DNA from: Nitrospirota bacterium
GTDB lineage: Bacteria > Nitrospirota > UBA9217
Length of the DNA: 64,000 bases
Direction of reading: 5' to 3'
Assembly: GCA_963754875.1 (NCBI GenBank)
Contig: CAVWHO010000022.1
Location: forward strand, 1 to 64,000
The notes under the pieces were generated by a model, which saw only the letters and a list, made by a program, of their open reading frames with translations, was not told the DNA's origin and did not search any database. Positions 40,799-62,756 of this stretch are shown here, piece after piece. A program made the translations under genes and the position numbers. How positions within the stretch are numbered: the first letter of the stretch is position 1; the number at the start of each line of letters is the position of its first letter.

Positions 40799-40976
40799 TG
40801 ATCTGTGTGGATCAACCCATTAAGCGACCCCAACCCATAAGGGAAAAACGCTTTATCTATGCGGTCTTCCATGCACAACATACTATTACGACGCATCTCG
40901 TTTTTTGACACTTTTTTCACCGATCATAGGTGTACTTGATGGCCTATTAAATCAGTGATTAAAACGCAAGTCAAGC
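40799..40976. repeat. Rhs-cassette junction repeat, copy A (empty: IHTDHL stub only)
   Basis: TGATCTGTGTGGATCA + TAAGGGAAAAACGC...TTACGAC...TTTTGACACTTTT...ATCATAGGTGTA...CAAGTCAAGC. Confidence 0.85.
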
Positions 40977-40995
40977 AGTCTGATGATATTTGCAC

Positions 40996-41023
40996 TTGAC
41001 TCAGAGCTGAAATTAGCTATAAT
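40996..41023 (+). promoter_or_regulatory. Sigma70-like promoter of the XRE/PIN operon
   Basis: TTGACT-16 bp-TATAAT. Confidence 0.6.
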
Positions 41024-41083
41024 ACCTTAAAAGGTACTAATAATATCTTATCAGGTATTCATAATTGGAAGGAGGTGTTTTCA

Positions 41084-41578
41084 ATGTCATTCGGGAAAAA
41101 CGTGGCGCGGTTCAGAAAAGAGAAAGGCTTGACCCAGGAGGATCTGGTTAAAAAGAGCGGAGTGGCGATCTCGCAGATCAGAAGGTACGAGGCAGACAAG
41201 TCCTCGCCTACCCTCGACGTGATCACTAAGTTGGCCAAGGCCCTGGGCGTTTCCATCGACGAGCTGGTGTTCGACAAGACTTCCGGGATCGCTGCAGGCA
41301 AGCTCATGGACCGGGAGCTTCTGGAGCAGTTTGAGATGGTGTCCGCGTTGAATGAGGATGAACGTCTGGCGGTTAAAAAAATACTAGAGGGGATTATCGT
41401 GAAACATCAGGTTGAGAAGATGATGAGGCCCGCAGTGGAGAAGTCCTGGTCGCAGCGGTTCCGGGAGATCACGGACAAGCTCGCGAAGGGCGCGAAGGGG
41501 TATTCACAGAAGGAGATCGACAAGGTGATCGATGAGGCGGTGGCTGCGGTCAGGACAAAAGAGCATGCCCACACCTAA
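41084..41578 (+). CDS. XRE-family HTH regulator with antitoxin-like C-terminal extension
   Basis: FGKNVARFRKEKGLTQEDL...QIRRYEADKSSPTLD...LAKALGVSIDELV; overlaps the PIN gene. Confidence 0.85.
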   Translation: MSFGKNVARFRKEKGLTQEDLVKKSGVAISQIRRYEADKSSPTLDVITKLAKALGVSIDELVFDKTSGIAAGKLMDRELLEQFEMVSALNEDERLAVKKILEGIIVKHQVEKMMRPAVEKSWSQRFREITDKLAKGAKGYSQKEIDKVIDEAVAAVRTKEHAHT

Positions 41579-42002
41579 GCTGAAGGCGGTTATCGATACG
41601 AGCGTGATGGTGAGCGTGGCCTTTGCCAGGGAAGGACTGACCAGAGAGATGCGGGACATGATCGCGGACGGGGCCTTTACGCTCGTTACGTCGAAGGCGA
41701 TCATGGCCGAGCTCTACCGCGTGCTACACTACCCTCACATTCAAAAACGGTTCAAGCCGTCGGAAGACGACATCAACGAGTTTATCGGCATGGTCATCGA
41801 GCGCTCGCTGATCACCAAGGGCCGCTACAGCCTCAAGAAGATCGCGGATGATCCGTCGGACGATATGTTCCTCGCCTGCGCGCTCGAAGCGAAGGCGGAC
41901 TTCATCGTCTCCCGCGATCCGCATATCAGGAACTTGAAGCAGTTCCACGGCGTGAAGATCATCGATGTGAAGGCATTCATGGAAAAGGCGAGGATGAAGT
42001 AG
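41565..42002 (+). CDS. PIN-family putative toxin
   Basis: AVIDTSVMVS...DDPSDDMFLACALEAKADFIVSRD. Confidence 0.88.
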   Translation: MPTPKLKAVIDTSVMVSVAFAREGLTREMRDMIADGAFTLVTSKAIMAELYRVLHYPHIQKRFKPSEDDINEFIGMVIERSLITKGRYSLKKIADDPSDDMFLACALEAKADFIVSRDPHIRNLKQFHGVKIIDVKAFMEKARMK

Positions 42003-42051
42003 AGCCTTCCGAAGCGGGCCGGTCAGTTCAATTCAATTTTATTTTACCCGT

Positions 42052-43182
42052 TTATTTTTTCTGAGATTTTATATTTTCTATCGCCGATTCTAGTAACTTT
42101 ACCATCCGCATTTTATCATCTTGCAGTTTCTTTTCAAATTCGTCCTTCCTCGAGCTATTTTTTAACCACGGATACGAGGTAGGAAGTACTTTTGCTGCAG
42201 CCAATGCAAGCGAGAGCTCCTTTAACGTCTTTTGCGTATCGCCTTTACCATCATAAGCACTCGCCACTGCTCCCCGAATATAAACTTCGGTTAAAGGTTC
42301 AATGTTCTTCTCAGTAATTAGAGAACTATAGAATTTTATTGCTCGCTCGAAATCGCCTGAATCTTTATAGCAGGAATTCAACATAGGAAAATAATAGGAA
42401 AAGTTAACAGAGGGGTCTAGCTTGATGACACTCTCATAAATGACTACTGATTTTCTGCAATCCGGCTTTATCTTAGCATATACTCGAGCAAGGTTTTCCA
42501 ACGATTCCCTGTCATCATGATAATTCTGAACTCGTCTTTCTAACCAATCGGCATAAGCTTTATCCTGGCTTTCCACCGAAGGTTCGTTTGTAGGAGTAAG
42601 GCCTTGAATGAACCAATCGACATCAGCTGCTTTATCAAGGACAGCAATTTGCGCAGATCGATCGATGGCCTGAAACACCATCGACACTGATATTACTGTC
42701 CGCGATTTAAGGCAAGCAATTCTTTTTTTAATAAGGTTCTGCGTAGCATCATGCACTTTGTCCCATGAAGATTCTTTGAAAGATACGATGATGGAATACT
42801 TCTCGCTGCCGTTGAACAGTGTTTTGTTAACGCAAACAGCAGCGATGTCGTTTCTATCGAAAGCGGGTTTCTTAGATATGAGGTAGGTTTTACCACTTTT
42901 GTCCGATACTGATTCAAATAACGATAAGGACTGTTTCTCAATATTCTCGTCGGCGACAGATGCAAACGAAAAATCAATATTGGCTCCGCCATAACAGTTC
43001 CTTATTAGTGTTTTTTCCCGAGCCGCATCTTCTTTGATGAGCTCAATAAGTTTTACGGGGTCAAATGGAGTACCATCTGTACGCGCGTTCTTTTGTGCGA
43101 TTTGATCCGAAGTTGTGCAGCTAATTATATTCACAAAAAAGAAAATAAAAAGCATTGTCTTCATTACTCTTGATCGTGTCAT
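42052..43182 (-). CDS. Predicted lipoprotein (SecD/F P1-like segment plus TPR-like helices); candidate immunity for cassette B
   Basis: Lipobox-like IISC; DIAAV...IIVSFKE...ATQNLIKKRIA; C-terminal LARVYA...GDFERAIKFY. Directly downstream of the tip. Confidence 0.55.
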   Translation of the reverse strand: MTRSRVMKTMLFIFFFVNIISCTTSDQIAQKNARTDGTPFDPVKLIELIKEDAAREKTLIRNCYGGANIDFSFASVADENIEKQSLSLFESVSDKSGKTYLISKKPAFDRNDIAAVCVNKTLFNGSEKYSIIVSFKESSWDKVHDATQNLIKKRIACLKSRTVISVSMVFQAIDRSAQIAVLDKAADVDWFIQGLTPTNEPSVESQDKAYADWLERRVQNYHDDRESLENLARVYAKIKPDCRKSVVIYESVIKLDPSVNFSYYFPMLNSCYKDSGDFERAIKFYSSLITEKNIEPLTEVYIRGAVASAYDGKGDTQKTLKELSLALAAAKVLPTSYPWLKNSSRKDEFEKKLQDDKMRMVKLLESAIENIKSQKK

Positions 43183-43247: not shown

Positions 43248-43829
43248 TTATAAGTGACATGAGCAATTTCCAGATAGTGTGTATGGCCCATATGCTAAAA
43301 TGTTAGGATCTAGATTGCCAGATGTCCATGCCGATACGGAAATAAATTTGAGTGGTACTTTTGATATATACACACCATAGTCACCGCTTTTGCCGCACTC
43401 AAGCGTTGATTTTATATTATTAACGGCGTTTATAACTTGACCACCTACCTTCGTAGCAAGCATAAAATCGCCAAACGCTTCCAGGTTTTCTATTAAGCTT
43501 CCAAGATCTGGTCCTTCAGTCAATCCTAAAGGATCCATACGTCTGATCGGATTATTTCCCACGTACGGGAAAAGACTATTCATTCCTCCAATCAACCCCA
43601 TCGGATCAGACTCTATGTATCTCCCGATCACCGGATTATAGTCCCTGTAATAATTATAATTCAGCCCCGTCTCAACATCGTAATACTGTCCAGGGAAGCG
43701 GAGATTGTTTGTGATGGTATTGGTGGTGATGTTGACTTCACCGAACGGTTTGTAATCCGCAGCCCAGACAACAACCCCAGAAGAGTCCGTCATCTTCTGC
43801 GGAGTACCTAAATGATCTGTGTGGATCAT
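43248..43829 (-). CDS. Orphan Rhs core-end plus toxin tip, cassette B
   Basis: MIHTDHLGTPQKMTD...NLRFPGQYYDVETGLNYNYYRDYNP...PYVGNNPIRRMDPLGL plus a ~90-aa unique tip. Confidence 0.88.
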   Translation of the reverse strand: MIHTDHLGTPQKMTDSSGVVVWAADYKPFGEVNITTNTITNNLRFPGQYYDVETGLNYNYYRDYNPVIGRYIESDPMGLIGGMNSLFPYVGNNPIRRMDPLGLTEGPDLGSLIENLEAFGDFMLATKVGGQVINAVNNIKSTLECGKSGDYGVYISKVPLKFISVSAWTSGNLDPNILAYGPYTLSGNCSCHL

Positions 43830-43987
43830 CCCATACCGCGACTTCAGCGCATAAGGGAAAAACGCTGTATCTATGCGGTCTTGCGAGCATAACATCCTCT
43901 TACGCCACGCCCCGTTTTCTGACACTTTTCTTGCATATCATAAGTGTAGTTGGCCCATTTAATCATTGATTACAGAGCAAGTCAAGC
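43813..43987. repeat. Rhs-cassette junction repeat, copy B
   Basis: Same core site and conserved blocks as copy A. Confidence 0.85.
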
Positions 43988-43999
43988 GATTATCAATAA

Positions 44000-44191
44000 G
44001 TGAGCGTTATCTGTCGCAGCGTGTCGACTCATGAGTTGGTGGGATTGGAGATCGGTGATAGCGGAAATAAAGAAACCCGCCTCTGGCGGCGGTTCAGCCA
44101 GGTGGAAAAGCTGCCGCCGCCGAAGCGTAAGCAGATCGTGCAGATTCTCGATGCCTTCCTGGGAAGTGAGAAGGCGAAGAAGGTTGGATAA
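44000..44191 (+). pseudogene. C-terminal remnant of an XRE regulator
   Basis: VSTHELVG...RLWRRFSQVEKLPPPKRKQIVQILDAFL; further decayed copies at ~45395-45497 and ~57686-57783. Confidence 0.65.
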
Positions 44192-44204
44192 GATACCATG
44201 CCAC

Positions 44205-44495
44205 CTATGGTCGATTTTTATCCTGATTAAACGGTTTATAAAAATAGGTGTAAAGAATAGCAATGATGATAGAAGCTATCATTGTCCGATAGATCCATTT
44301 TAATTGCGAGTCCTCTTGTTCAGTTAAATAAACGATCGTACCATGAATATTCAGAGGATAGGTTCTTTGAATGTCAGCCTGTGGCTGCCCAGGCCGCGTG
44401 TACGCGTAATGATAGTTTAAATATACATATAACCCCAGGGATACAAATATCACTGTCACAATTACGAACGCTATAGCTTTTTTGTACTTTCTCAT
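44205..44495 (-). CDS. Two-TM candidate immunity protein, cassette C
   Basis: Small AT-rich membrane protein directly downstream of the tip. Confidence 0.6.
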   Translation of the reverse strand: MRKYKKAIAFVIVTVIFVSLGLYVYLNYHYAYTRPGQPQADIQRTYPLNIHGTIVYLTEQEDSQLKWIYRTMIASIIIAILYTYFYKPFNQDKNRP

Positions 44496-44530
44496 GGGAA
44501 AACTCCATTGACGCAGTTTCACGAAGTTTA

Positions 44531-45283
44531 CTAATGACACGATGCGGTTCCAACAGGAGGAGAAGCGCCATTTGGATTTCCGAACACATTAAATAGCGGT
44601 GTAATATTCGTTCCTGTTATTGTTGTTGAACCACCAGCACTTAGGCCAGGACCGACTGTCACACCTCCGCCATGAACAGTTCCATTAGGGCTACTACCGG
44701 TAAAAGCGTCCCCCGAAGCATTTGGACCCCAGCCACCTCCGAGACTTACTTGATTAAATGGACCGGATAAATCATTAATGGTCTGAGCATTTGAACCACT
44801 TACACTTACCCCACCCGAAACACCGCCACCGGCACCCGCGCCGCCACCTCCGGTTGTATAAACACCTATATTGCCCGATCCATCAAAGGCGATGCCAGCC
44901 GAACCTGTAAAGGTAAATGGACCCACCTGTCCGGTTACAGTTATGCCGACTTGCACGGTAGTTAACCCCAACGGATCAATAAATCTGACTGGGTTATTTC
45001 CTACATAGCGGTAGAGGTTAATTCCGCCTCTTAAGCCAATTCTGTCAGCTTCGTTGTACCTGCCGGTATTTGTGTTCAAGCCCCTGAAGTAATTGTAGAG
45101 CGAGCCCGTCTCTGCATCGAAGTACTGACCTATGCCACGTAGGTTGTTCGTGATCGAACTGGTGATATTGTATGCTTCCCCGAATGGTTTAAAATCCGCG
45201 GACCACTGAACCGTCCCGTTTGAGTCCGTCATCTTCTGGGGAGTGTCAAGATGATCTGTGTGGATCAGCCCGTACCGCGTCAC
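44531..45283 (-). CDS. Orphan Rhs core-end plus Gly-rich toxin tip, cassette C
   Basis: LIHTDHLDTPQKMTD...GGINLYRYVGNNPVRFIDPLGL plus a Gly/Ser-rich tip; the core has diverged (NLRGIGQ). Confidence 0.85.
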   Translation of the reverse strand: MTRYGLIHTDHLDTPQKMTDSNGTVQWSADFKPFGEAYNITSSITNNLRGIGQYFDAETGSLYNYFRGLNTNTGRYNEADRIGLRGGINLYRYVGNNPVRFIDPLGLTTVQVGITVTGQVGPFTFTGSAGIAFDGSGNIGVYTTGGGGAGAGGGVSGGVSVSGSNAQTINDLSGPFNQVSLGGGWGPNASGDAFTGSSPNGTVHGGGVTVGPGLSAGGSTTITGTNITPLFNVFGNPNGASPPVGTASCH

Positions 45284-45388
45284 CGACCTTTAAAGGAAAA
45301 ACCCTTTAATAATGATGTGGTCTTCAGTGATATACAACCTCCTATGACACCACTCTTTTTTCGACACTTTTTTTAGCAATCATAAGTA
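45252..45388. repeat. Rhs-cassette junction repeat, copy C (truncated, diverged)
   Basis: Core site intact; distal promoter block absent. Confidence 0.75.
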
Positions 45389-46044
45389 TCGGTGCTGGCG
45401 GTTAAGCCAAGTGGCGAAACGACGCCACCGAAGCGTAAACATCGCGTAGATCCTTGATGTGTTTCTGGGAAGTGACAAGGCGAAGAAGGCCGGTTGAAAG
45501 ACTGCGGTTCCTTCGGTCGGCCTTCTGCTTGAACATTATGAACACAATGAACACGAAAATCAGCGGCGTCGTTTTCTGCCGTTGGCTTGTTTGATTTGTC
45601 GGGCACGATGTTCCTTAATGATAATAGATAGTCGATAAAAAAGATCACAAGACTAAAAAATGAAAAAAGGATGCAGGTGCCCCATATAGCGCCGATGGAT
45701 TTTTGACAAGAATTTCCAGGATCTTTGGGATCGTAGAGAATGTCTATTGCTTGGCCTTCTTTGTAAACGCCGAATGGGTTTAGTTTTAAAAGTTCATATT
45801 CATTTCCAGTTGCATTATAAAACTTAATAATCGGAAAATTCGAAATATATGTGTCCCGCCACCCCCCGCGTCCACCTTCTATATTGTATGTAACTGGCTG
45901 ACTTCTAAACCCTTTCACGATCGCAACGGTAGGGATAGCCGCTCTCAGAAATAGAAGAGTCACAAAAAAGTGGTAAGCCGCTATGGTGAGAAATAGCAGC
46001 GCCAAAATGGTAGATGTTTTAACAGTAGCTCCTAAGATTCGCAT
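45373..46044 (-). CDS. DUF3592-like membrane protein (paralogue of 57833..58318; reads through into the repeat)
   Basis: TM, PIIKF..ATG, YKEGQAIDILYDPKDP, TM. Confidence 0.65.
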   Translation of the reverse strand: MRILGATVKTSTILALLFLTIAAYHFFVTLLFLRAAIPTVAIVKGFRSQPVTYNIEGGRGGWRDTYISNFPIIKFYNATGNEYELLKLNPFGVYKEGQAIDILYDPKDPGNSCQKSIGAIWGTCILFSFFSLVIFFIDYLLSLRNIVPDKSNKPTAENDAADFRVHCVHNVQAEGRPKEPQSFNRPSSPCHFPETHQGSTRCLRFGGVVSPLGLTASTDTYDC

Positions 46045-46156
46045 TGATGCCCAAACCAACAATTGAGCAGACCTTTCCTCAACATTCCATAATGCGTGCT
46101 GATCCTATCTTTGCGTCTTTAGTCCATTTTTCTCCCGCAACGAGACCCATACACAT

Positions 46157-46609
46157 CTAATGTTCCTTGTGGTTTGCCATTTTTATAAAAAGCCAAATTA
46201 CTCCCATAAATATGAGCGCCGATAAAACCGGCATAATCAAAGCACTTATTTGTGTTCCAAGATCAGGAGCTTTCCAAAAGTTCCATAACCGTGAATTTAG
46301 CGCTAAGAAGATAGCAAGAGCTGGAAAACTATAATAAAAAGCTTCTTTTCTAAAAACATAAAAAAGAAGATAGCCAGAAATTGTCGCCGATATTAACGCT
46401 GAGATTGAAGTAGATATAATATTTAGACATATGGTCAAGATCAAGATAACTATCTCTGACTTTATCGTTGAAGCGCGCAGTGAGATAAAATCAAAGCTCC
46501 AGTTAAACAGTAAATGGTTTACATACCCAAAAACAAATCGGAAGATTAGCCCTATACAAAATGCATAGCACCAGGATATCAATTTATTTTTGCGGATTAG
46601 AGCAACCAT
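46157..46609 (-). CDS. Multi-TM candidate immunity protein, cassette D (paralogue of 58385..58867)
   Basis: KNKLISWCYA...LWNFWKAPDLG...; directly downstream of the tip. Confidence 0.65.
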   Translation of the reverse strand: MVALIRKNKLISWCYAFCIGLIFRFVFGYVNHLLFNWSFDFISLRASTIKSEIVILILTICLNIISTSISALISATISGYLLFYVFRKEAFYYSFPALAIFLALNSRLWNFWKAPDLGTQISALIMPVLSALIFMGVIWLFIKMANHKEH

Positions 46610-46622
46610 GCTTATCCTCTTA

Positions 46623-47216
46623 TTAATACATGTAGAATATCCACTTCCATTCAAGACAACAATCTTTAGGGGGAGCATGACAAACACCGGGTTCCTGCGG
46701 GCAGGGTTTTGCACAAACCCGCTTGAAGCTCCATATCTGCCCCGTTCTATCTCCCAAATTAAAATCGGTCAGACCGGTAGCAATACTGTTAAGCGATCCT
46801 GCCGCTCCCGCATTACCAGGATAACTGGATGGCCCCGATCCTGAAGTCGCGTCGTCTAATCCTTTTGAGTCAACTCGATTCATGGGACTATTCCTCACAT
46901 AGAGATAATCATGAAGATGGCCAGGAGTCATAACAAAAGCAGAGGGGACAAAATATGTTGCACGGTTGTGGATAAAGGGTAACAACAATGGGTCCGATTC
47001 CAGATAACGCCCAATCACAGGATTGTAGTCCCTATAATAATTGTAATTCAGCCCCGTCTCCGCATCGAAGTACTGCCCCGGGAATCTCAGGTTGTTCGTG
47101 ATCGTTGATGCGGTGACCGTAGCTTCGCCGAATGGTTTGTAGTCAGCAGACCAGACGACCGCGCCGGTTCCGTCCGTCATCTTTTGTGGGGTGCCAAGAT
47201 GATCTGTGTGGATCAT
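46623..47216 (-). CDS. Orphan Rhs core-end plus Cys-rich tip, cassette D
   Basis: MIHTDHLGTPQKMTD...YVRNSPMNRVDSKGL-DDATSGSGPSSYPG...CAKPCP...CH...CC.EWK. Confidence 0.88.
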   Translation of the reverse strand: MIHTDHLGTPQKMTDGTGAVVWSADYKPFGEATVTASTITNNLRFPGQYFDAETGLNYNYYRDYNPVIGRYLESDPLLLPFIHNRATYFVPSAFVMTPGHLHDYLYVRNSPMNRVDSKGLDDATSGSGPSSYPGNAGAAGSLNSIATGLTDFNLGDRTGQIWSFKRVCAKPCPQEPGVCHAPPKDCCLEWKWIFYMY

Positions 47217-47383
47217 CCCGTCCAGCGGCCTCGGCTCATATGGAAAAAACGCCGTATCTATGCAGTCTTCCGAGCACTATATCCTATTACGACACCTCGC
47301 CGATTAAGCCTCTTTTTTCAAAGATCGTAGGTGTACTTGGATGTGATGGTCTATTAAATCATTGATCAAAACTCAAGTCAAGC
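47200..47383. repeat. Rhs-cassette junction repeat, copy D (adjacent to the recombinase element)
   Basis: GATGATC-TGTGTG-GATCATC core plus all conserved blocks. Confidence 0.85.
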
Positions 47384-47465
47384 GATTAAGTATGTATTGA
47401 CTCTGGAGGGGTGTGAGGAACTAAAAAAATCACGCGAGCATAGTGCTCCGTAATTTTGCAGGAAG

Positions 47466-47852
47466 TTACCATTCCGCTCTAACGGGATACTTCGTGATAC
47501 GAGGATCGGGTGTGAGGATAATGTGCCCGCCAGCAATCGCCTGGCAGACGAGTATTCGGTCGAAGGGGTCTTTGTGATAATCGGGGAGACGGGAAAGCTG
47601 CAATACTGAGGCTTCGTCCAAAGGCAAAGAGTCAATCTCGTGGCGCGTGCGCCACTTCTTGATAAATTCGTGCGCAGGCTCGGGCAACGGTAATTTGCCC
47701 AGTTTGTTTTTGACGATGATCTCCCACGCGGACGCTACGCTTAAGTAAACCTCGTTGCCTGGATCGGAGAAGAGATGACGCGCAGTATCAGATAGCTCAG
47801 GACTGCCAGATGCAATCCACAGGAACGTACAGGTATCCAGAAGAAGGTTCAC
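47466..47852 (-). CDS. vapC: VapC-family PIN toxin
   Basis: LLLDTCTFLW...YLSVASAWEI...HKDPFDRILVCQA...LTPD. Confidence 0.92.
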   Translation of the reverse strand: MNLLLDTCTFLWIASGSPELSDTARHLFSDPGNEVYLSVASAWEIIVKNKLGKLPLPEPAHEFIKKWRTRHEIDSLPLDEASVLQLSRLPDYHKDPFDRILVCQAIAGGHIILTPDPRITKYPVRAEW

Positions 47853-48094
47853 GATTCTTCACCGCGAAACTGGGCAAGTGTTTCCTCGGGCAGATCTTCG
47901 AAGAACGAGGCAGGCACCTTGAATTTCCCTTTTGCCAAGCCGATGGAGCGCGGCTTGTGCCGATGAACCGCGAGCGGACGCAGTTCAGCAACCGGCTGGT
48001 TCCGCCGACACAGCAAGACGGTTTCCCCATGCTCTACTTCTTCGACGTAGTGAGACAAATGAGTTTTGGCTTCGTGCATATTTATTTTTTTCAT
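47849..48094 (-). CDS. Phd/YefM-family antitoxin
   Basis: INMHEAKTHLSHYVEEVEHGETVLLCRRNQPVAELRP; GTGA overlap with vapC. Confidence 0.92.
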   Translation of the reverse strand: MKKINMHEAKTHLSHYVEEVEHGETVLLCRRNQPVAELRPLAVHRHKPRSIGLAKGKFKVPASFFEDLPEETLAQFRGEES

Positions 48095-48100
48095 GGTTCA

Positions 48101-48139: not shown

Positions 48140-49072
48140 TCAATCCCGGTCCTTCTCCCTTGGGTGGCATTTGGTGTGGACTTCTTTGAGATCAGCGATA
48201 CTGACTGACGTATAAATCTGGGTCGTTTCGAGTGATGCATGCCCAAGCATCTCCTGGATGTGATGTATGTTGGCCTTGTTTCTGAGCATAAGCGTTGCGC
48301 ACGTGTGCCTGAAGGTATGAGGCGATATATTCTTCTTGATCTTCGTTTTTTTGCCGTAAATCTTCACCAGCTCCCATACCCTGTTTTTTGATAGTTTAGT
48401 CCCGTTAATGGTGAGGAATAGATGATTGTCCGTCGGGTCTTTAACGAGCATGGGTCTTACCGCCTTTACGTAGTTTTCTATGTATCTGCATGCGATCTTG
48501 CCGATCGGGACGACACGGTCCTTGCTTCCTTTTCCACTGTTCACTCTGACGTAGCCCTCGTAATAGTCCACATCCGCAAGCTGCAGGTTAATCAGTTCGT
48601 TCCTTCTGATCCCGGTTGAGTACAAGACCTCGAGGATGGTCCGGTCCCGGTATCCAGTAGCGGTTTTTGTGTTGGGTGCATGGATAACCTTCTTCGCTTC
48701 CGGTCCCGTCAAAATCGAGCGGGGCAGTCTCCTGGGCGTCCTGGCATAGGATATGTCTTTGGCCGGATCGCTCACGAGGTAGTTCTTTTCGACGAGGAAG
48801 CGGAAGAAGCCTTTCAAGGCCTTTAAGGTGTTGTTCTGGTGGAAGACGCTATTTGGTTCCCCCCGGCTGTTGACCATCTCGTAAATGTGAGCCTGGTAAT
48901 CATGTACGATTTCTTTTGCGACCTTGCTGACTTTGGTGACGCCTTGCTCTTCGATCCAAGCGAAGAAGCGGTTAAGAAAATAGATATGTCTCTTGATCGT
49001 TTCGGGGGCATAGTGAATGACCGTAAGGTGCTGGCGGTATGTTTCTTTTAATGTATTAAAGTCGTTATTCAT
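48140..49072 (-). CDS. XerC/D-like tyrosine recombinase 2
   Basis: YSTGIRRNE, GKGSKDR, SPHTFRHTCAT, LGHASLETTQIYT, HPRE. Confidence 0.92.
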   Translation of the reverse strand: MNNDFNTLKETYRQHLTVIHYAPETIKRHIYFLNRFFAWIEEQGVTKVSKVAKEIVHDYQAHIYEMVNSRGEPNSVFHQNNTLKALKGFFRFLVEKNYLVSDPAKDISYARTPRRLPRSILTGPEAKKVIHAPNTKTATGYRDRTILEVLYSTGIRRNELINLQLADVDYYEGYVRVNSGKGSKDRVVPIGKIACRYIENYVKAVRPMLVKDPTDNHLFLTINGTKLSKNRVWELVKIYGKKTKIKKNISPHTFRHTCATLMLRNKANIHHIQEMLGHASLETTQIYTSVSIADLKEVHTKCHPREKDRD

Positions 49073-50054: not shown

Positions 50055-50196
50055 GATTCGCCTCGTTATATATGTATGATCGATGTTTTTCACGCATCCG
50101 GTATATATGCTTTTCTTTAAAACCGCCAAGATGCTGTTCGTAAGTGAGATAATACTATGTTAATTAATAGTTTTTTCTTGATTCATACTTGCACTA

Positions 50197-53525: not shown

Positions 53526-53543
53526 AATAGTCTCCTTTTGCAG

Positions 53544-55085
53544 TTAGTTATAGTATTCGCTGCCACGGATGTTGCTGTGAGTGATCGCCTGTGATGCGGC
53601 TTTTGGCTCTGGTAACGGTTTTTTGTCTAAATTTGTTTCAAGGATGGACTTGACGCTTCCGAAACTGATGCCCCCGATGGCGAGTGCTCGCTTGCAGGCA
53701 GCCTCGACGCGTTCTTTGCCAAACTTCTTGGAAAGAGTGATGATCCCCATACAGGAACGAAAGCCTTGTTGTGGGTGAAGCTTCTTTGCGAGAATGGCCG
53801 TAACCAGCTCTGCCGTTGATTTGCCGGTTTCCGATGCCCAGCGTATCAGGCGCTCTGGGGTCCAGTCAGCATAGTCCCGATGGGACTTCGGCATGTGCTC
53901 GGCAAGTGTCGTATGTCTTCCCTTGGCATAGGACCGGATATGTGAGGCGATGCGTTTGTTGTGAAAGAAGACTTCTACAATCGATTCCGTTAGCCGTACG
54001 TCCAGGTATTCATTGCGGAGTTGGTAGGGTACGCTGTAATAGTGGTCATTGACTTCGACGTGGTAATCGATGCCGGAACGTTTTTTTATCTTCCATTCTG
54101 CGTAATCGAAGGCCACAGCAGGCAGCGGTTGTAATGCAGGCTTATCGATCTCCAGAAAACGGCTCATACGGCTGCCGGAGAGCTTCTTGAAGGGCCGGTT
54201 ATTGAGTCTATCCAGCAGTTCCCGGATAGCGGCATTGAGTTCTGCGAGGCTGAAGAAGGTACGGTTCCTGAGGGCTGCCAGGATCCAACGCTGCACCAGA
54301 AGGACTCCGGCTTCAACTTTCGCTTTGTCTTTAGGCTTCCTGACGCGGGCAGGAATGACCGCAGCACCGTAATGAACTGCAAGCTCTTGATAGGTGCGAT
54401 TGACGCCTGGCTCATAGCGACAGACCTTGGTGATGCCGGAGAGAAGATTATCAGGGATCAGGATCTCGGGCACACCGTCGATGAACTTAAGGGTCCGGAC
54501 ATGGGAACCGATCCAGTCTGGCAGACCCTGCGTAAACGTTGCTTCGGCATATGTAAAGTTGCTGGCGCCTAGGACGGCGACGAAGATCTGACAGTTGTGT
54601 ACCTCTCCGGTGGATTTGTCGATTACCGAGACTGTTTGGCCACAGTAATCAACAAACAGCTTTTCTCCTGCAAGATGAACCTGTCGCATGGAGATATCGA
54701 GCTTTTTTGCATAGGCGCGATAGAGGTCACAAAAATGTGCGTACTGATATCCTTCAGGATATTGCGCTTTGTACTCGTCCCACAGGAGCATCAGGGTAAC
54801 ACTTTTACGCGCAAGCTCGCGGTGAACATCCTCCCATACAGGGAGCGGACGTGGAGATGTGGAGACAATGACCGGCGGGTAGAGAAGATGCTCGAGGGCG
54901 GTATCGTCCAGGTCTGCCGGCAGGGGCCATGATAGCCCGGCCTGTCTGGCTCGTTTCGTATACTCGTCAACGGTGCTTCTGGCTATTCCACAGCTTTTGG
55001 ATATAGCGCGGCGGTCTAGGCCGCAGGACCATTTGAGGCGTAAAACTTCTTTAATTGTTCGCACGGGTATTCTTTCTCTCGTCAT
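53544..55085 (-). CDS. istA: IS21 transposase IstA
   Basis: HLAGEKLFVDYCG, FVAVLGASNFTY, VPEILIPDN, PKDKAKVE, DYHVEV..HYYSVPY. Confidence 0.96.
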   Translation of the reverse strand: MTRERIPVRTIKEVLRLKWSCGLDRRAISKSCGIARSTVDEYTKRARQAGLSWPLPADLDDTALEHLLYPPVIVSTSPRPLPVWEDVHRELARKSVTLMLLWDEYKAQYPEGYQYAHFCDLYRAYAKKLDISMRQVHLAGEKLFVDYCGQTVSVIDKSTGEVHNCQIFVAVLGASNFTYAEATFTQGLPDWIGSHVRTLKFIDGVPEILIPDNLLSGITKVCRYEPGVNRTYQELAVHYGAAVIPARVRKPKDKAKVEAGVLLVQRWILAALRNRTFFSLAELNAAIRELLDRLNNRPFKKLSGSRMSRFLEIDKPALQPLPAVAFDYAEWKIKKRSGIDYHVEVNDHYYSVPYQLRNEYLDVRLTESIVEVFFHNKRIASHIRSYAKGRHTTLAEHMPKSHRDYADWTPERLIRWASETGKSTAELVTAILAKKLHPQQGFRSCMGIITLSKKFGKERVEAACKRALAIGGISFGSVKSILETNLDKKPLPEPKAASQAITHSNIRGSEYYN

Positions 55086-55582
55086 CCAGCTCTCCTTAGA
55101 AGCGAATTTTAAGGAGCAGGATATACGAATTTGTAGAATTTACCCAGCGTCGTTTAATGCGTTAGAGGGTGCCTGAATTGGAGCGGAACACCGGCCCGAA
55201 TTGCAGTGGAATGGGTGCCTGAATTGGAGCAGAACAGGTGCCTGAATTGCAGTGGAATGGCTGCCTGAATTGGAGCAGAATACTCACTCACAGACACTGA
55301 GTTCCTTGCTTTTACTCATTTCGGCCTACTTTGTAAAACTCTGTCAAGAGGTTGGCGATAATCGGAACTAAGACGATTTCGATAATGGTCTTATCGTAAT
55401 AAATTGAAAATGAGCGCATCGCAGCATTGAGTACCTTTTCCTTCGTCGTAAGGCTATCTAATCCTGATGGCAGGATTGTTACCGCATCTTGCACGAAACA
55501 TCAATCCGATCTTGTATCTCACGACAAAAAGCAGCACAGTGCATTGATTTGTTATGTCTATTTTCCGCTCTCTGCTTGTATC

Positions 55583-56192: not shown

Positions 56193-56861
56193 TCATTGGT
56201 TTTCAACAGAGACTTTTACTTTTCTGTACAAGAAGAACAATAGAATTACCATAAAAAGAGTAAGTAGAAGATGGACCATATTTGCTTGCCGCAACGTTGC
56301 GTCGATCATCTTTCCAATCTGAGTAGAGTTTAAGCCGCCTGCGGCATTCAGAGAACCGGTTGCAATAATCTTATCGACTTGATGTTTATAATATCTACCC
56401 AGAATCAGAGTTGGCACGTAAAACAAAATAGCTAATAGGATAAAGTATATTGGTATCTTCTTGCCGATAAGCTTGTTTTTCTCGTTGTCTAAGCCAGTAA
56501 AGTAAATAAGAATAGACCAGAGAGACGCGGCCAACGAAAATAGCACGAGTATCCTTGTAGCATACTCTGTTAAAACAGTTGGCGCGAGTTCTATTAAGAA
56601 ATAAATCTGTGCCGCTAAAGCGAGAGGCAATAAAACGCCACCAATTATTTTCATTTTAGGGTGTATGTTTCGGATCATCGCGGCCAAAAGAACTCCCATG
56701 GTGCTTAAAAGTAATTTTGATAATAGACTGATTAAGGCCCAAGCCGTGATCGAATAGGCACCTGCAATTTTCAACCATACGACTGAGACCAGACCATATG
56801 ATAGGATACAAAATAAGAAGTAATCCCTGATTTGCCGTTTGAAAGATTCAGAAGTACTCAT
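56193..56861 (-). CDS. Multi-TM candidate immunity protein, cassette E
   Basis: About six hydrophobic segments, AT-rich, directly downstream of the tip. Confidence 0.6.
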   Translation of the reverse strand: MSTSESFKRQIRDYFLFCILSYGLVSVVWLKIAGAYSITAWALISLLSKLLLSTMGVLLAAMIRNIHPKMKIIGGVLLPLALAAQIYFLIELAPTVLTEYATRILVLFSLAASLWSILIYFTGLDNEKNKLIGKKIPIYFILLAILFYVPTLILGRYYKHQVDKIIATGSLNAAGGLNSTQIGKMIDATLRQANMVHLLLTLFMVILLFFLYRKVKVSVENQ

Positions 56862-56874
56862 TTCATTTATCCTA

Positions 56875-57558
56875 TTATCGTGCAGCTTCACACGTCTCAT
56901 AAAATCGTTGGCGCAACATACCGCAATATGCCTCACCAGTCCGAAGACCAGGATCTTCTATGCCAGACGGGACAGTGAAGCAAACAATCGTTAACCCGGT
57001 TCCGATGATACCACCTATGATGGGATTCTGTGTCGCTACGCCAGCTCCGACACCGGCTCCAATGGCAAGTATTACACATGTAGTTGTGGCCATGCGCTGA
57101 GGTCCTTGTCGCATACGAGTCATACAATCATTATACGCCGCATCTGCCTGTGCTTGACATGTATCTGGTTGGCAAGCTCCTGTACCGCCGCTTACCTGCA
57201 ATCCTGAAGAGTCCATGAGATTCACAGGATCGTTTGCGGCATAAAGATAATCGTGAAGTTTGCTTGGAGTCTTTGTAAAATAAGGTGGGACAAAATAGCT
57301 TCGCCCTCGGTAGACAAATGGAAAAGACAATGGATCACTCTCAATGTACCTCCCGATCACCTGGTTATAGTCTCTATTAAGGTTATAGTTCAGTCCTGTC
57401 TCAGCATCATAGTACTGCCCGGGGAATTTGAGGTTGTTCGTGATCGTTGATACAGTGATCGTCGCTTCCCCGAAAGGTTTGTAGTCCGCGGACCATACTA
57501 CGGTCCCTGATGAATCCGTCATCTTTTGTGGCGTCCCTAAATGATCTGTGTGGATCAA
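56875..57558 (-). CDS. Orphan Rhs core-end plus Cys-containing hydrophobic tip, cassette E
   Basis: LIHTDHLGTPQKMTD...YAANDPVNLMDSSGL plus a tip with VILAIGAGVGAGVA...IIGGIIGTGLTIVCF. Confidence 0.85.
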   Translation of the reverse strand: MIHTDHLGTPQKMTDSSGTVVWSADYKPFGEATITVSTITNNLKFPGQYYDAETGLNYNLNRDYNQVIGRYIESDPLSFPFVYRGRSYFVPPYFTKTPSKLHDYLYAANDPVNLMDSSGLQVSGGTGACQPDTCQAQADAAYNDCMTRMRQGPQRMATTTCVILAIGAGVGAGVATQNPIIGGIIGTGLTIVCFTVPSGIEDPGLRTGEAYCGMLRQRFYETCEAAR

Positions 57559-57678
57559 CCTGCCCTGCGCTTCCGGACCATAAGAGAAAAGCCCTGCATC
57601 CATGATGGGTTTCGGGTGTTACGTATACTTACGACACTCTGCGTTTTTTGACACTTTTCCAAGAAATCATAGGTGTAG
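57542..57678. repeat. Rhs-cassette junction repeat, copy E (truncated)
   Basis: Core site plus TTACGACAC...TTTTGACACTTTT...ATCATAGGTGTA, then the XRE remnant. Confidence 0.8.
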
Positions 57679-57832
57679 ATTCTTGGGTTCAGCCAGATAA
57701 AAACTCTCGCGCCGAAGCGTAAGCAGATCGTGCAGATTCTCGATGCGTTCCTGGGAAGTGAGAAGGCGAAGAAGACCGGATGAATAACTACAGTTCCTTC
57801 GGTCGGCCTTCTGCTTGAAACATTATAAAATA

Positions 57833-58318
57833 TCAGCGGCGGCGTTTTTTGCCGTTGGCTTGATTGATTTGTCGGGCACCACGTTCCTTAATGATAATAG
57901 ATAGTCGATAAATAAAAAACACAAAACTTAAGAATGAAAAAAGGATGCAGGTACCCCAGACGGCTCCAATGGTTTTTTGATAAGAATTTCCAGGATTCTT
58001 TGGATCGTAGAGAATGTCTATTGCTTGGCCTTCTTCGTACAAGCTGAACGGGGTTAGTTTTGAAAGTTCGTACTCATTTCCATTGGCGGTATTAAACTTA
58101 ATAATAGGAATATTAAATAAATATGTGTCTCGTCTACTTCCATATCGGCTTTCAGTATTCGATGTTACTGACTGACTTCTAAACCCTTTCACCAGAGCAA
58201 CGGTGGGCACAGCCGCTCTCAGAAATAAAACAGTAGAAATAAAGTGGTAGGCTGCTATGGTTAGAAATAGCAGCGCCAAAATGGTAGATGTTTTAACAGC
58301 AGTTCCTAAGATTCGCAT
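57833..58318 (-). CDS. DUF3592-like membrane protein
   Basis: TM, PIIKFNTANG, YEEGQAIDILYDPKNP, TM. Confidence 0.7.
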   Translation of the reverse strand: MRILGTAVKTSTILALLFLTIAAYHFISTVLFLRAAVPTVALVKGFRSQSVTSNTESRYGSRRDTYLFNIPIIKFNTANGNEYELSKLTPFSLYEEGQAIDILYDPKNPGNSYQKTIGAVWGTCILFSFLSFVFFIYRLSIIIKERGARQINQANGKKRRR

Positions 58319-58384
58319 TAATACCCAACCAACAATTGAGCAGTCCCTTCCACGGCCAAGAGATCGGTTACACCCGTTCAAATT

Positions 58385-58867
58385 CTACCGACCGACTCCA
58401 GACAAGTTATTATTATCGCCGTTCCCCATGCGCTTGATAAGATACTTTTGAAAAAGCCATACTACAGCTAAAAAAACGAAAGCTGCCAAGAACGGTCCCA
58501 TCAAAGCGCTTATTTGCATTCCAAGATCAGGAGCTTTCCAAAAATTCCATAAATGGGAATTTAGCACAAAGAAGATAGCAAGAGCAGGAAGACTATAATA
58601 AAGAGCTTTCTTTCTAAAAACATAAAAAAGAAGATAGCCAGGAATTATCGCCGATATTAACGCTGAGGTTGAATCAAATATAATATTTACAAATATAGTC
58701 AAGATAAATAGCTGTGACTTTAGCGTTGAAACGCTTCGCGAGATAAAATCAAAGCTCCAGATCCACAGAAAATGTTTTACATACCCTAAAGAAAATCGGA
58801 AAATTAGCCCCATACACAATGCATAGCACCAAGACATTAATTTATTTTTGTGGATTGAAGCAATCAT
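58385..58867 (-). CDS. Multi-TM candidate immunity protein of the full-length Rhs
   Basis: Starts 14 nt after the Rhs stop; hydrophobic; paralogue of 46157..46609. Confidence 0.65.
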   Translation of the reverse strand: MIASIHKNKLMSWCYALCMGLIFRFSLGYVKHFLWIWSFDFISRSVSTLKSQLFILTIFVNIIFDSTSALISAIIPGYLLFYVFRKKALYYSLPALAIFFVLNSHLWNFWKAPDLGMQISALMGPFLAAFVFLAVVWLFQKYLIKRMGNGDNNNLSGVGR

Positions 58868-58880
58868 GTTTATCCCCGTT

Positions 58881-61800
58881 TTACCACTCGTAGAAGATCG
58901 TCTTCCATTCACAACATTCACTCTTCGGAGCGGGACCATGACAAGCAGCCGGTTCCAGCGGGCAGTATTTTACACAAACTTGCTTGAAACCCCATGTCGA
59001 GTACGGATCGCCCATATTAAAAAAGATGAGGCCGGCAGCATTGTTAAGCGCTCCTGACGCTCCCGCATTACCAGGATAACTGGATGGCCCCGATCCTGAA
59101 GTCGCGTCGTCTAATCCTTTTAAGTCAATCCGATTCATGGGACTATTCCCCACATAGAGATAATCATGAAGACGGCCAGGAGTCATAACAAAAGTTGAGG
59201 GGACAAAATATGTTGCACGATTGTGGATAAAGGGTAACAATAATGGGTCCGATTCCAGATAACGCCCAATCACCGGATTATAGTCCCTATAGTAGTTGTA
59301 ATTCAGCCCCGTCTCTACATCATAGTACTGCCCAGGGAAGCGGAGATTGTTGGTGATCGTTGACACGGTGACGGTCGCTTCCCCAAAGGGTTTGTAATCC
59401 GCCGCCCACACAACAGCCCCGGTCGAGTCCGTCATCTTCTGGGGTGTACCTAAATGATCTGTGTGGTAATAATAGGTATTGCCATTTGCTATCATCGCCA
59501 TCGGCTGACCATTCAAGTATACATATTCCGTTGTAATAATTCCAGCACTATTTGACTCTGCTATGATCTGGCCGCTCTGACTGTAATGAAAGACCGTCAC
59601 GGTGCCGTTTACATCCTTCTTCACCCGCTGCCCATTGCCGTTATACGTGTAGTACGCCGTGGTCGTGCCATTATTTACCTGGACCAGCCTCTGATTCTGA
59701 TTATATATATACTGGCGGGAGCCTTCTATCGTGGTATTTCCGTCGTTATCAAATCCAAATGATATGTTGTTGGCACTCGTGAGCTTATTTGTATTCGGGG
59801 CATAGGTATAAGTGTTCAATCCTTCTGCCAGCCTGTTGCCGACTCCATCATAGGTCCAGCCGAGGCTGCCCCAAGATCCCATCGCGCTCGTTAAGCGATC
59901 CAATGCGTCGTAGCCAAAGGTTTTGTTTTTCGTGGGATCGAGTATGTCGGTGATGTGCTGGATATTGGCATTTGCGTCATACTGATCGTAGCTGAGATTC
60001 ATGACAGCACCCGTGGCAATGGACGTGATACGATACTGATTGTCATAATTGATGGTGCCGGCGATGCCGTTGCCGTACGTCAGCGATGACATCCCGCCGA
60101 AAGGCTTATAAGTGACATTCGTGGCCAGGTTCGCGGCATTGTTCAGGACGCTTGTTGCGCGGTCGTTCGTGTAGTTATACGTGATTACGCGGCCCGACGG
60201 ATAGGTCATGGTCTTTAGATTGCCGTTTTGATCGTAGGTGTATTGGGTAATGTACTGAACGCTGCTGATGGTTTTGGTCTCTTTCCTGACCTGCCCTTTC
60301 GGCGTGTACTCGTAGCTTGTTACTCCACTCGCATCAGTCATGGAGCAGAGCCTGCCCTTGCCGTTCACGCAGGTATCATATGTGTATGCAGTATCGGTAT
60401 CCGATGGGAAATCGATGGTCGTCAGTCTGTTTAAAGCATCGTAATGATAGGAGATCGTGACGCCCTTGGCATCGGTCTTTGAAGTTAAATTTCCTGCGGG
60501 GTCGTACTGGTAAGTCGTCGTTCCCGTGTCCGGGGATATCACCTGATATACTCTGCCGCGGTCGTCATATTTATAAATGGTGGCATTGTTGTTCGCATCA
60601 GTAACTTTCGTGAGATTGTTTATCGTATTGTATTCATAGGACGTGGTAATCGTACCCGGCTGAACAACCGATGTCAGCCGACTTAATGCATCGTAATTGT
60701 ATGAAGTCGTATTATTTTTAGGGTCTTTGGCCGTATTCCGGTTTCCTAAGGCATCATAGGTATATTGAGTAAACGTCGAATCGGGATTAATTATCTTGGA
60801 AACCCGATCCAGGGCATCATACGAATAGCTTAATGTCTTCTGGAGGCTCCCCGAACTGTCCCTGATCTGCTCCGTCAACTTATTGCCCTCGGAATCGTAG
60901 GTGTAGTTTATCGTGTTGTTCAGGCTGTCGTTTATGGTGATAAGCTTCCCCATCGAGTCGTAAGTATACGAGATCGTGTTTCCTTCGGGAAGCGTGATGT
61001 GATCGATCTTATTCGCCCCGCCGCAGGACTGACATCCGCCTGCTACGTAGAAATACTGCGTCGCGCCAGTATCGCCGGGAGCTTTTATTGTCAGCACCCT
61101 GCCGAGAGTGTCATAGGTATAAGTTGTTGCATTACCGTTGGGGTCCGTTGCCGTCTGAGGATTGCCAAGCTGGTTGAAGTTGGAATACGTCGTCGTGCCC
61201 ACAAGCGGCTGATCTACGCCGTTAAGATTGCCCGTGGCTGGGTCGTAATAGTACGTGGTCACGTCGTTGACGTCGGTCCTGGGGCCGTCGATGGTTGATA
61301 TCTTGCCGCTTGCATTATATGTATAGCTTGTGGTGTAGGAATAGGGCGTTCCATCTCCGAGCAGGCCGGTTTCCGTGGTCGTAAGCAGGTTGCCATTCGT
61401 CTCGTCGTAGGTTTTTGTGGTGACCCTGATGTTGCCGGGATCAACGACGCTCGTTACTGTTTCCGTAGTCACGAGACTGAAGTTAGGTTCGTAGGTGTAG
61501 GTAGTCGTCTTTTCTTGCGGCGTGCCCGCGGCTTCGGTTCTGCTGAGCACGTTGCCCTTGCTGTCGTAACTGTTGATTAAGGTAGTTGAAATCCCCGTTG
61601 TTATGTCAGTATGGATTTCCTGGAGTATCCGGGTGTTGTTGTCCCGGACGTAGGTGGTGACGTTGCCGAAGGTGTCGGTGACCTGTACCGGCATGCCGTT
61701 CGTGTCGAACTGGACGGCGCGGGTCTGGGTATTCAGGAGATTGCCGCTCATGTCTTTGATCAAAGTGGTCATCGTGGTCTGCTGATAAGGGATGATGTAT

Positions 61801-62756
61801 GAGAAGTCGATCTCGCCCGTGCCATGAGTCTGTTTGACGACTTTTCCTGTGGAATCATAGGTGTTGATGTAGGGGCCTTGTCCTTCATCGATGGATGTCA
61901 GGAGATGGTTTCTGGTCGGATCAGTATATCCATAGGCCGAGTTGCCGGCGGGCCCCGCGACTGAGGTGAGGTTGCCGATGCTGTCGTGATTGTAGCTCAC
62001 GGTCCGGCCGGTGCTGTCGGACAGCCCCGTAAGCCTGCCGGTCGAGGTGTCATACTGCAGGTCCACTGACGCTCCGGTGGCGTTGCCCGATGCGTCTCTT
62101 TCTTCGATCCTGCTCAGGTGGTAGTCGTAGGCCACGATGACAGGAGTGTTTTGATCTACATTTGCCGGCAGCAATCCCCAGAGAAAATCTCGTGTAGCGG
62201 CCCGGTAGAAAAAGACGAGCGAGTTCCCTTTAGCATCGGCCATGCTCATGAGCCTGCCCTGGCTGTCGTATTTTTCCGTACCGCCGTACTTGTCGGTGTA
62301 GGTGTAGGTGCCGTCAGCGTTCTGCATAAGCTCGCCCGTGGCTCCTGCGGTGCTGGTGTACAGGCCTGTTACCGAGTTCCAGGTGAAGTGCATTTTGCCT
62401 CCGCACTCCCGCCGCACCGTGGCCGAGTTGTCGGCATAGATGTAGAGCCGCTTGTCGTAGTTTATGGCCCAGCCGTAACCCAGGGGGCTGTCATAAGTTG
62501 TTTTGCTATTGTAGCTCCGCGTGACCCGGATGGAAAAAAGATTTCCAAGGGTAAGGTCCGTGCTCGGGGAAAACGTCTCCATGCCGGATAGCAGGCTTAT
62601 GGGCTTGCCGCCAAAGGCGGGGTTGGTGCCCGCTGTCTTGCCGGATTCGCAAAAGAGGTCGGGCAGGTTGTCCTGATCTGCGATAGAAGCGTAAACAACT
62701 GATGAATACAGAATAAGAAGTGCTACGACTATCGATTTATATGCTTCCCGCAGCAT
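58881..62756 (-). CDS. Full-length Rhs/YD-repeat protein with signal peptide, DUF6531-like domain and Cys-rich C-terminal tip
   Basis: MLREAYKSIVVALLILYSSVVYA; KPISLLSG...TRSYNS...PLGYGW; many YD repeats; YYYHTDHLGTP...NLRFPGQYYD...DLKGL. Confidence 0.95.
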   Translation of the reverse strand: MLREAYKSIVVALLILYSSVVYASIADQDNLPDLFCESGKTAGTNPAFGGKPISLLSGMETFSPSTDLTLGNLFSIRVTRSYNSKTTYDSPLGYGWAINYDKRLYIYADNSATVRRECGGKMHFTWNSVTGLYTSTAGATGELMQNADGTYTYTDKYGGTEKYDSQGRLMSMADAKGNSLVFFYRAATRDFLWGLLPANVDQNTPVIVAYDYHLSRIEERDASGNATGASVDLQYDTSTGRLTGLSDSTGRTVSYNHDSIGNLTSVAGPAGNSAYGYTDPTRNHLLTSIDEGQGPYINTYDSTGKVVKQTHGTGEIDFSYIIPYQQTTMTTLIKDMSGNLLNTQTRAVQFDTNGMPVQVTDTFGNVTTYVRDNNTRILQEIHTDITTGISTTLINSYDSKGNVLSRTEAAGTPQEKTTTYTYEPNFSLVTTETVTSVVDPGNIRVTTKTYDETNGNLLTTTETGLLGDGTPYSYTTSYTYNASGKISTIDGPRTDVNDVTTYYYDPATGNLNGVDQPLVGTTTYSNFNQLGNPQTATDPNGNATTYTYDTLGRVLTIKAPGDTGATQYFYVAGGCQSCGGANKIDHITLPEGNTISYTYDSMGKLITINDSLNNTINYTYDSEGNKLTEQIRDSSGSLQKTLSYSYDALDRVSKIINPDSTFTQYTYDALGNRNTAKDPKNNTTSYNYDALSRLTSVVQPGTITTSYEYNTINNLTKVTDANNNATIYKYDDRGRVYQVISPDTGTTTYQYDPAGNLTSKTDAKGVTISYHYDALNRLTTIDFPSDTDTAYTYDTCVNGKGRLCSMTDASGVTSYEYTPKGQVRKETKTISSVQYITQYTYDQNGNLKTMTYPSGRVITYNYTNDRATSVLNNAANLATNVTYKPFGGMSSLTYGNGIAGTINYDNQYRITSIATGAVMNLSYDQYDANANIQHITDILDPTKNKTFGYDALDRLTSAMGSWGSLGWTYDGVGNRLAEGLNTYTYAPNTNKLTSANNISFGFDNDGNTTIEGSRQYIYNQNQRLVQVNNGTTTAYYTYNGNGQRVKKDVNGTVTVFHYSQSGQIIAESNSAGIITTEYVYLNGQPMAMIANGNTYYYHTDHLGTPQKMTDSTGAVVWAADYKPFGEATVTVSTITNNLRFPGQYYDVETGLNYNYYRDYNPVIGRYLESDPLLLPFIHNRATYFVPSTFVMTPGRLHDYLYVGNSPMNRIDLKGLDDATSGSGPSSYPGNAGASGALNNAAGLIFFNMGDPYSTWGFKQVCVKYCPLEPAACHGPAPKSECCEWKTIFYEW

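Follow-up and report, generated by a model that had tools for sequence, protein, structure and literature searches.

The array of orphan toxin tips behind an Rhs gene of a Nitrospirota bacterium (lineage UBA9217; assembly GCA_963754875.1, contig CAVWHO010000022.1) was analyzed within a stretch of 64,000 nucleotides, referred to below as the window. From sequence comparison alone, we propose with a probability of about 0.75 that this array was built by an integrative element that exchanges toxin tips through site-specific recombination. The proposed element of 6-9 kb would be comprised of a core site, an Rhs tip, an immunity gene, an XRE regulator gene, a primase/ATPase gene, two tyrosine recombinase genes, a toxin-antitoxin (TA) pair and a non-coding element end. 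On the excised circle, the end would abut the tip across the core site, a 6-bp spacer between two inverted arms. The two recombinases of the element, presumably acting as a pair, would join the circle's site with the matching codons of an Rhs core (Tyr|His-Thr-Asp-His in the window). In this way the resident Rhs would gain the new tip as an in-frame fusion, and its former tip, together with the immunity gene, would land behind the element end. Repeated rounds would result in an array, whose units without machinery would persist as cassettes, for which an intact copy could supply the machinery in trans, while homologous recombination would secondarily reshuffle the cassettes.

A fixed junction resembling a recombinase core site

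All four orphan tips of the array and its terminal stub start with the CACACA hexamer of the HTDH codons (minus-strand positions 57552, 47210, 45262, 43823 and 40809), which in the full-length Rhs gene lies at position 59465. The alignment of these six junctions breaks at the same base throughout: the hexamer is preceded by ...GAT C in all five orphan copies and by the Tyr codons ...TAT TAC in the full gene. The original prediction, made from the letters of the window, is borne out both in this common start and in the single non-coding repeat joined to each orphan. The five copies of the repeat, termed here element ends A to E, have a length of ~130-175 bp and are 59-78% identical over their last 130 nt. 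A profile of the ends (trained on 16 ends, the window's five copies included) recovered these copies from the source genome at E-values 1e-20 to 1e-28, together with one more end at a second Rhs locus on contig C16 and otherwise none below E 0.5.

The junction is a dyad of the GATGATC-6 bp-GATCATC type, in which the terminal bases of the end and the initial Rhs bases mirror each other across the hexamer, and inverted arms around a spacer are likewise found in the core sites of tyrosine recombinases. Using a junction profile trained on 16 ends with the Rhs sequence excluded, we obtained 38 hits followed by at least 30 nt of sequence, and every one of them ends in frame between two Rhs codons. 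Seven target classes were distinguished (HxDH, xGNNP, RDYNP, xxNNN, DANG, xxxDP and DDLYR), and DDKGR represents an eighth. As judged at the sequence level, at least eight target positions exist, HTDH among them, and within a lineage the position is fixed.

Analysis of 36 unique junctions gave mirroring of 5.8 of 8 arm bases at a spacer of 6 bp, as opposed to 1.1-2.8 at spacers of 0-5 and 7-12 bp. When both arms were allowed to slide with the dyad centre fixed, 6 bp scored best (5.83) and 8 bp came close (5.67). With one junction per class, an end matches its own target arm at 6.1 bases and a permuted one at 4.0, a difference reached in a fraction of 0.0003 of 20000 draws. A later set of 14 junctions, of which one is off by a base in its indexing, has arms matching at 5.6 of 8 bases, and Escherichia coli cousins with a single recombinase have this dyad at DPIG codons (5.3 of 8 bases in 10 junctions). 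In locus L057 (related loci and genomes carry our L and G numbers), two ends that are 92% identical face different targets, and the arm differs to match. The HTDH class forms one clade in the trees of both recombinases (21 rows each, five in the class, support 100 and 100).

Linkage of the junction with a recombination module

Because the recombinase search in 41 related genomes gave matches at a generic XerC/D level (40-44% at best), the primase-ATPase was chosen as the survey marker. This yielded 13 loci from genomes and 63 from metagenomes, of which 74 were retained after removal of two weak DnaG-like hits. The recombinase pair lies downstream of the primase in 20 of the 20 loci that have room for it, an element end follows the pair in 11 of 12 (some of these rows trained the end profile), and an Rhs core or element end lies upstream in 27 of 29. 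The co-occurrence of repeat, Xer pair and toprim gene beside rhs, originally put forward as a check, is therefore the rule in this sample, and the typical locus has the element directly behind a long Rhs core and one tip. We conclude that the arrangement is real, non-random and general beyond the source genome.

Several arrays among the related loci have features of their own. Six HNDH cassettes stand in a row in a machine-less array (L169; G041:C2:503000-512000), where a full Rhs gene and recombinases were not found within the 36 kb examined. At L028:6580-22298, a 10-kb unit is repeated in tandem from a DDLYR junction and is 100% identical over the 5710 nt available. The sequences at L079:11851 and L081:15804 are 99.98% identical over 15 kb, with one differing base inside the spacer.

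Crossover borders in near-identical units

Since a fixed junction could ride passively on a circle integrated by RecA, we compared near-identical units in differing surroundings. From spacer to spacer, a single mismatch in 8500 nt separates L026 and L080. Upstream, their Rhs sequences differ from position -4 relative to the junction, in a comparison that is limited to 9 nt in L026 and to that extent weakens the case; downstream, a different displaced tip begins at +11, though ~600 nt of conserved core follow. The borders of the unit accordingly fall at -3 and +11 of the core site. The same backbone precedes a third tip in L081, with divergence at +11/+15, the L080 tip is found behind another end in L086 with identity from -6 to +42, and L060 diverges from L061 at +14. 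Among E. coli Rhs cores that have 1-11 mismatches over the 400 nt before the junction, the first difference beyond it lies at +2 or +15 (five different-tip pairs among L126-L129; L127 and L128 share a tip, and L125 was omitted because of a one-base offset). Two genomes of the same family, G241 and G229, provide a natural control: their Rhs arrays lack element ends, and the orphan cores vary in start and length.

An 11.3-kb circular record (L110) consists of exactly two units closed only by end-type junctions, and may represent an excised circle or an assembly artefact. Taken with the linkage, the dyad and the end-less arrays, these borders support the original proposal that a tip-bearing circle integrates at HTDH, provides the Rhs with a new tip and displaces the old one to a place behind an element end. 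The shared backbone of L026 and L081, which have different tips and immunity genes, implies that the cargo is also exchanged by some further route.

Points against the model and alternative explanations

Several observations weigh against tip exchange by site-specific recombination. The HTDH class has no near-identical pair, hence its presumed crossover point is borrowed from sister classes. The cores flanking HTDH-class junctions are sometimes identical past the junction, up to +89 in L055 and ~+120 in L043; variation in the stretch +15..+45 is correlated with that in the upstream end (Spearman 0.46 over 105 non-independent pairs); and the two copies of tip T1 in the window change identity near +150, away from the junction. 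Because of these shared flanks, the co-variation and the T1 switch, we infer that homologous recombination, gene conversion or an RDYNP-class event also acted. The breakpoint position, whose variability was named originally as a refuting outcome, is fixed within a lineage, but sequences downstream of it were reshuffled. An 8.8-kb circular record (L109) was rejected as an excised element, since it is closed through ISEc1 and not through the core site. Class G is not a single clade in the recombinase trees, and the agreement between clades and classes is also expected from co-inheritance, as the end and the recombinases are linked. Spacers are not always identical inside one array (L043, L171 and L079), and the primase gene of the window is broken. 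Finally, in seven target-type sites the left arm is not mirrored (1-4 of 8 bases); such sites may be poor substrates, in which case a cassette might at times be added behind the active tip in place of a tip replacement.

The missing arm also suits an immunity collector, in which the recombinases would act mainly on pairs of ends and insert cassettes behind the active tip, and the Rhs gene would seldom be re-armed. A T1-like tip with an I1-like immunity gene on the full Rhs gene of a genome from the same genus (L171) agrees with such a collector, as does the order of the window array, in which a machine-less cassette comes first and the recombinases second. However, one and the same unit stands behind different Rhs sequences in L026 and L080, E. 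coli cores near-identical upstream switch tips at the site, and most loci have the element right behind a long Rhs core and one tip. We consider this explanation improbable.

Rated slightly lower is homologous recombination alone, by which a circle bearing the fixed junction as an inherited feature would be integrated by RecA at any point of the core that follows, as in the circle model of 2009, with the recombinases merely resolving or excising the replicon. It would account for the sequence shared after the junction in L055 and L043, the mosaic T1 copies and the circle closed through ISEc1, but hardly for borders at -3, +11, +14 and +15 in near-identical units despite hundreds of core bases beyond. 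Moreover, identity among the window cores after the junction is mostly 60-90%, a mirrored arm accompanies each of eight independent junction positions, and the variable lengths predicted for RecA occur in the end-less arrays. Action of the host XerC/XerD on the site, as with dif-exploiting elements, is very unlikely, for although the 6-bp spacer with inverted arms fits it, as does the RstR-like repressor, a type also present in CTX/RS1 elements, the core is unlike the dif sequence as quoted in PMC10210955, the arms vary with the element lineage, and the element has two intact recombinases of its own.

Organization of the array in the window

The layout of the array is directly evident from the window; its features lie on the minus strand unless marked (+). 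The full Rhs gene (58881..62756; 1291 aa) encodes a hydrophobic N-terminal leader, DUF6531, YD repeats, the core and the active tip T1a. Its target-type (B) site at 59452..59473 has Tyr codons, the 6-bp spacer CACACA (59465-59460) and the right arm; the left arm is mirrored at 2 of 8 bases. T1a is followed by a putative membrane immunity protein I1a (58385..58939; 68% identical to its paralogue I1b, with an immunity role suggested by position) and a DUF3592 membrane protein (57833..58381; 66% identical to the copy in unit C). The C-terminal ~33 codons of an XRE gene remain as remnant E (57685..57786, +) before the shortened end E (57553..57683), whose 3' end carries the left arm of the core site.

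Unit D begins with the orphan tip T2 (56875..57558) at the HTDH junction, followed by the putative membrane immunity protein I2 (56193..56936), also assigned by position. The predicted primase-ATPase (50197..52650) has a DnaG-like primase and a PF27228 P-loop ATPase domain. The structure model of this protein was low in confidence (pLDDT 55.7), and the DnaG likeness alone was used. Elements of this type would be replicated by this enzyme. The CHC2 zinc finger found at the N-terminus of related proteins has been lost from the window copy, and Lys replaces the TOPRIM Glu that is present in 40 of 44 aligned rows; judging from these changes, this copy is probably inactive. Tyrosine recombinases 1 (49065..50129) and 2 (48140..49072) both retain the R, HxxR, H and Y motifs, and for each the nearest model is PRK01287 at a score below its cut-off. 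A Phd/PIN TA pair (47466..48094) and end D (47211..47385) complete the unit. The module of toprim-ATPase, twin Xer and TA genes noted originally by copy D is thus present, but with its primase degraded and an insertion sequence of the IS21 family before it. This IS21 copy (istA and istB; 52651..55282) lies at the 5' end of the primase gene with a 6-bp duplication, and five further near-identical copies exist in the genome. The IS21 ends (52668-52724 and 55167-55281) bear 23-bp tandem repeats, and a second IS21 variant of 88% identity has three genome copies. The XRE gene is absent from element D, and the place expected for it and the zinc finger is occupied by a basic 135-aa protein. Encoded at 55583-55990 between I2 and IS21, this protein has two CxxC-like motifs, is single-copy in the genome and has no match in Pfam or NCBIfam.

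In unit C, the tip T1b (46623..47216), a paralogue of T1a, is 73-83% identical to it before ~+150 and 93-100% identical from there. The putative immunity protein I1b (46157..46714) and a second DUF3592 membrane protein (45373..46062), whose open reading frame (ORF) continues into XRE remnant C (45400..45500, +), precede end C (45263..45398). Ends C and E have a single deletion in common, which extends from the XRE remnant into the repeat. Units C and E share this deletion as well as paralogous tip, immunity and DUF3592 genes, and we therefore take a unit to start at the junction, to include the tip with its cargo and to finish with the next end.

Unit B contains a Gly-rich tip T3 (44531..45268), for which no family was found (best score 0.86), a putative membrane immunity protein I3 (44205..44540), XRE remnant B of ~65 codons (43991..44191, +) and end B (43824..43990). 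Unit A contains the tip T4 (43248..43829), a lipoprotein-like putative immunity protein with a SecDF P1-head-like stretch (42052..43182), an intact RstR-like XRE gene with a PIN gene (41075..42002, +) and end A (40810..40976). As for I1a and I2, position suggests the immunity roles in these two units; each orphan tip has a membrane or lipoprotein-like gene downstream. The XRE protein beside A scores above the NCBIfam cut-off as RstR-like, the same XRE and PIN pair lies upstream of the primase in L023, L029 and L058, and the remnants beside B, C and E match the C-termini of intact XRE genes of related elements nearly letter for letter, in full agreement with the original assignment. The proposed decay of older elements needs an amendment: decay does not follow position in the array, as a machine-less remnant sits on the active Rhs and the recombinases sit in the second unit. 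Consensus scans lent no support to an outward promoter in the element end, no Rfam family matched it, and the five ends had no attC-like hairpin on either strand (z-scores -1.10 to +0.44).

Counts of one full Rhs gene, four orphan cassettes and a stub stand as originally given, but the stub (40772..40809) is not empty: it keeps the spacer, the right arm and ~38 nt of Rhs codons, and lacks a tip. Its similarity to Rhs past the first 13 nt is no better than that of shuffles in the one test made. Stubs with 34-47 nt of Rhs codons occur at the most distal junction of four arrays (window 40772-40809, G000:C16:469240, L171:18094 and L173 of G024), and L179 is a lone element end with a decayed stub. 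The constant length might mean that the site reaches ~40 nt into the tip.

A Cys-rich secreted protein (62831..63352), which we assign to the host-side part of the toxin locus, is encoded upstream of the Rhs gene and also upstream of the second Rhs gene of the genome. This second locus (G000:C16:469200-481300) has the same upstream layout of a large protein, a Cys-rich protein and Rhs, followed by one cassette and an XRE remnant; its element end is split by an IS3-like element, and its 46-nt stub repeats the local variant of the Rhs spacer. In the window, the large protein (63588-64000, on to G000:C22 72965) is a secreted-looking protein of 3126 aa with a FlgD-Ig domain at its end, a possible delivery partner for the leader-bearing Rhs. 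On the other side, three genes at 33789-40377 (+), convergent on the stub, encode a 461-aa unknown protein and tyrosine recombinases of 861 and 873 aa. The latter pair is present in seven other genomes (of 301 searched), where its short flanks have no Rhs or primase match, and this module is an element separate from the array, to which no family could be assigned.

Distribution and significance

Primase relatives number 1205 among the 7999 candidates scored; the primase is present in 9 of 401 genomes of a phylum sample, in 37 plasmid records and at one locus in viral contigs. In the annotated regions that we inspected, the trio of XRE, primase and recombinase genes stands behind E. coli Rhs genes; of 5426 complete genomes of this species, 119 have a match to the junction region of a cousin, with most of it covered in 56. 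The trio also lies behind CdiA/TpsA-type genes, an FG-GAP repeat gene and a large Leptospira gene annotated as peptidase M23. Of the loci at such non-Rhs targets, L184 alone showed a fixed junction, with its two orphans beginning at one common position of the gene. Inspection of the CdiA-type junctions of L182 and L184 by eye revealed no clear symmetry of the arms, and no junction was found for L111 or L183. The cousins with a single recombinase are located at E. coli Rhs and at CdiA-type genes.

A broader generalization, to which we give even odds, is that undescribed, widespread and self-replicating integrative elements serve as the tip-exchange engine for Rhs, CdiA/TpsA, FG-GAP Rhs and the large Leptospira toxins, that they re-target by changing the arm of their own end together with the recombinases, and that many 'XerC' proteins annotated by PRK01287 belong to them. 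The gain of a tip without loss of the old immunity gene was previously attributed to homologous recombination with hypothetical circles. The present proposal names a candidate circle, the enzymes and a site of 20-odd bases, which turns the question into a plasmid assay testable in E. coli. If correct, it makes toxin diversification an element-driven process, explains the common gene trio (primase, 'xerC' and XRE) beside toxin genes, and offers recombinases whose natural variants recognize different coding sequences and fuse genes in frame.

Comparison with known systems

The closest precedent is the displacement of Rhs C-termini described by Jackson et al. 2009 (PMC2935791): a circle bearing a core fragment, a tip and the genes behind it inserts through a single crossover, which moves the old tip downstream, and the paper states expressly that Rhs is unaccompanied by an integrase. 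In contrast, the window junction is fixed and forms a dyad core site, and a primase and two recombinases travel along with it. In the part consulted of Zhang et al. 2012 (PMC3482391), XerC/D-type genes are noted beside polyimmunity loci with a suggested role in accumulation, whereas an element, a site and in-frame tip exchange are not defined there. Martinkus et al. 2026, as cited in a passage of a 2026 preprint, likewise concerns Xer-type genes by immunity arrays. Our literature search, which left subscription papers mostly outside, returned no description of the element by title, abstract or passages; a paper on recombinase classification does not mention Rhs, primase or toprim, and the passages available from three genome papers describe no such element.

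The recombinase-linked immunity arrays rAID-1 of Bacteroidales (available parts of Ross et al., bioRxiv 10.1101/471110; Azhieh et al., PMC12247911) resemble the window array by their tyrosine recombinase, co-oriented genes, repeated intergenic motif and gain of immunity genes. However, they are comprised of immunity genes only, behind one XerD-like recombinase at the 5' side, whereas the units in the window carry Rhs toxin tips fused at a site within a gene, and the recombinases and the primase lie inside the mobile unit, namely the second one.

Integrons also have tandem cassettes parted by a repeat, and movement of machine-less cassettes in trans is plausible for both. The original term 'integron-like' thus holds as an analogy for the repeat-bounded cassettes, of which G041 has six in an array, but not for the ends, which are unlike attC. 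The window recombinases lie inside a unit, their target lies inside a coding sequence, and neither is an IntI-type integrase (TIGR02249 at 121 and 124 bits, in two stretches, against a cut-off of 265). The dif-targeting IMEX elements differ in their core, compared by eye with the quoted dif, and by the two recombinases that the present element brings along. Integrative mobilizable or conjugative elements (IME/ICE) are set apart by transfer genes: no relaxase, conjugation or virion gene was seen among the 27 window ORFs scanned with Pfam, and related circular records were typed as non-mobilizable.

The inverted arms around a 6-8 bp spacer are those of a tyrosine-recombinase element, and placement of a single element at more than one target, with borders lying at the core, was observed for L026/L080/L081 and L060/L061, which belong to classes that are sisters to that of the window. 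Satellites such as P4 or the phage-inducible chromosomal islands (PICI) and gene-restoring elements are similar by a repressor divergent from a primase-ATPase, a tyrosine recombinase, a TA pair and an insertion that restores the 3' end of the target gene. Like a satellite, the present element combines an integrase with a primase-helicase (DnaG-like, with a PF27228 P-loop domain of predicted helicase activity), while packaging or capsid-diverting genes were absent from the Pfam and NCBIfam scans. Unlike in these satellites, the restored 3' end is a different toxin domain, and the target shifts among codon positions of one gene family. The parts are familiar, but their combination belongs to none of the named families tested. 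By analogy, the element works like an integrative satellite with its attachment site inside a toxin gene and a replacement tip as its cargo.

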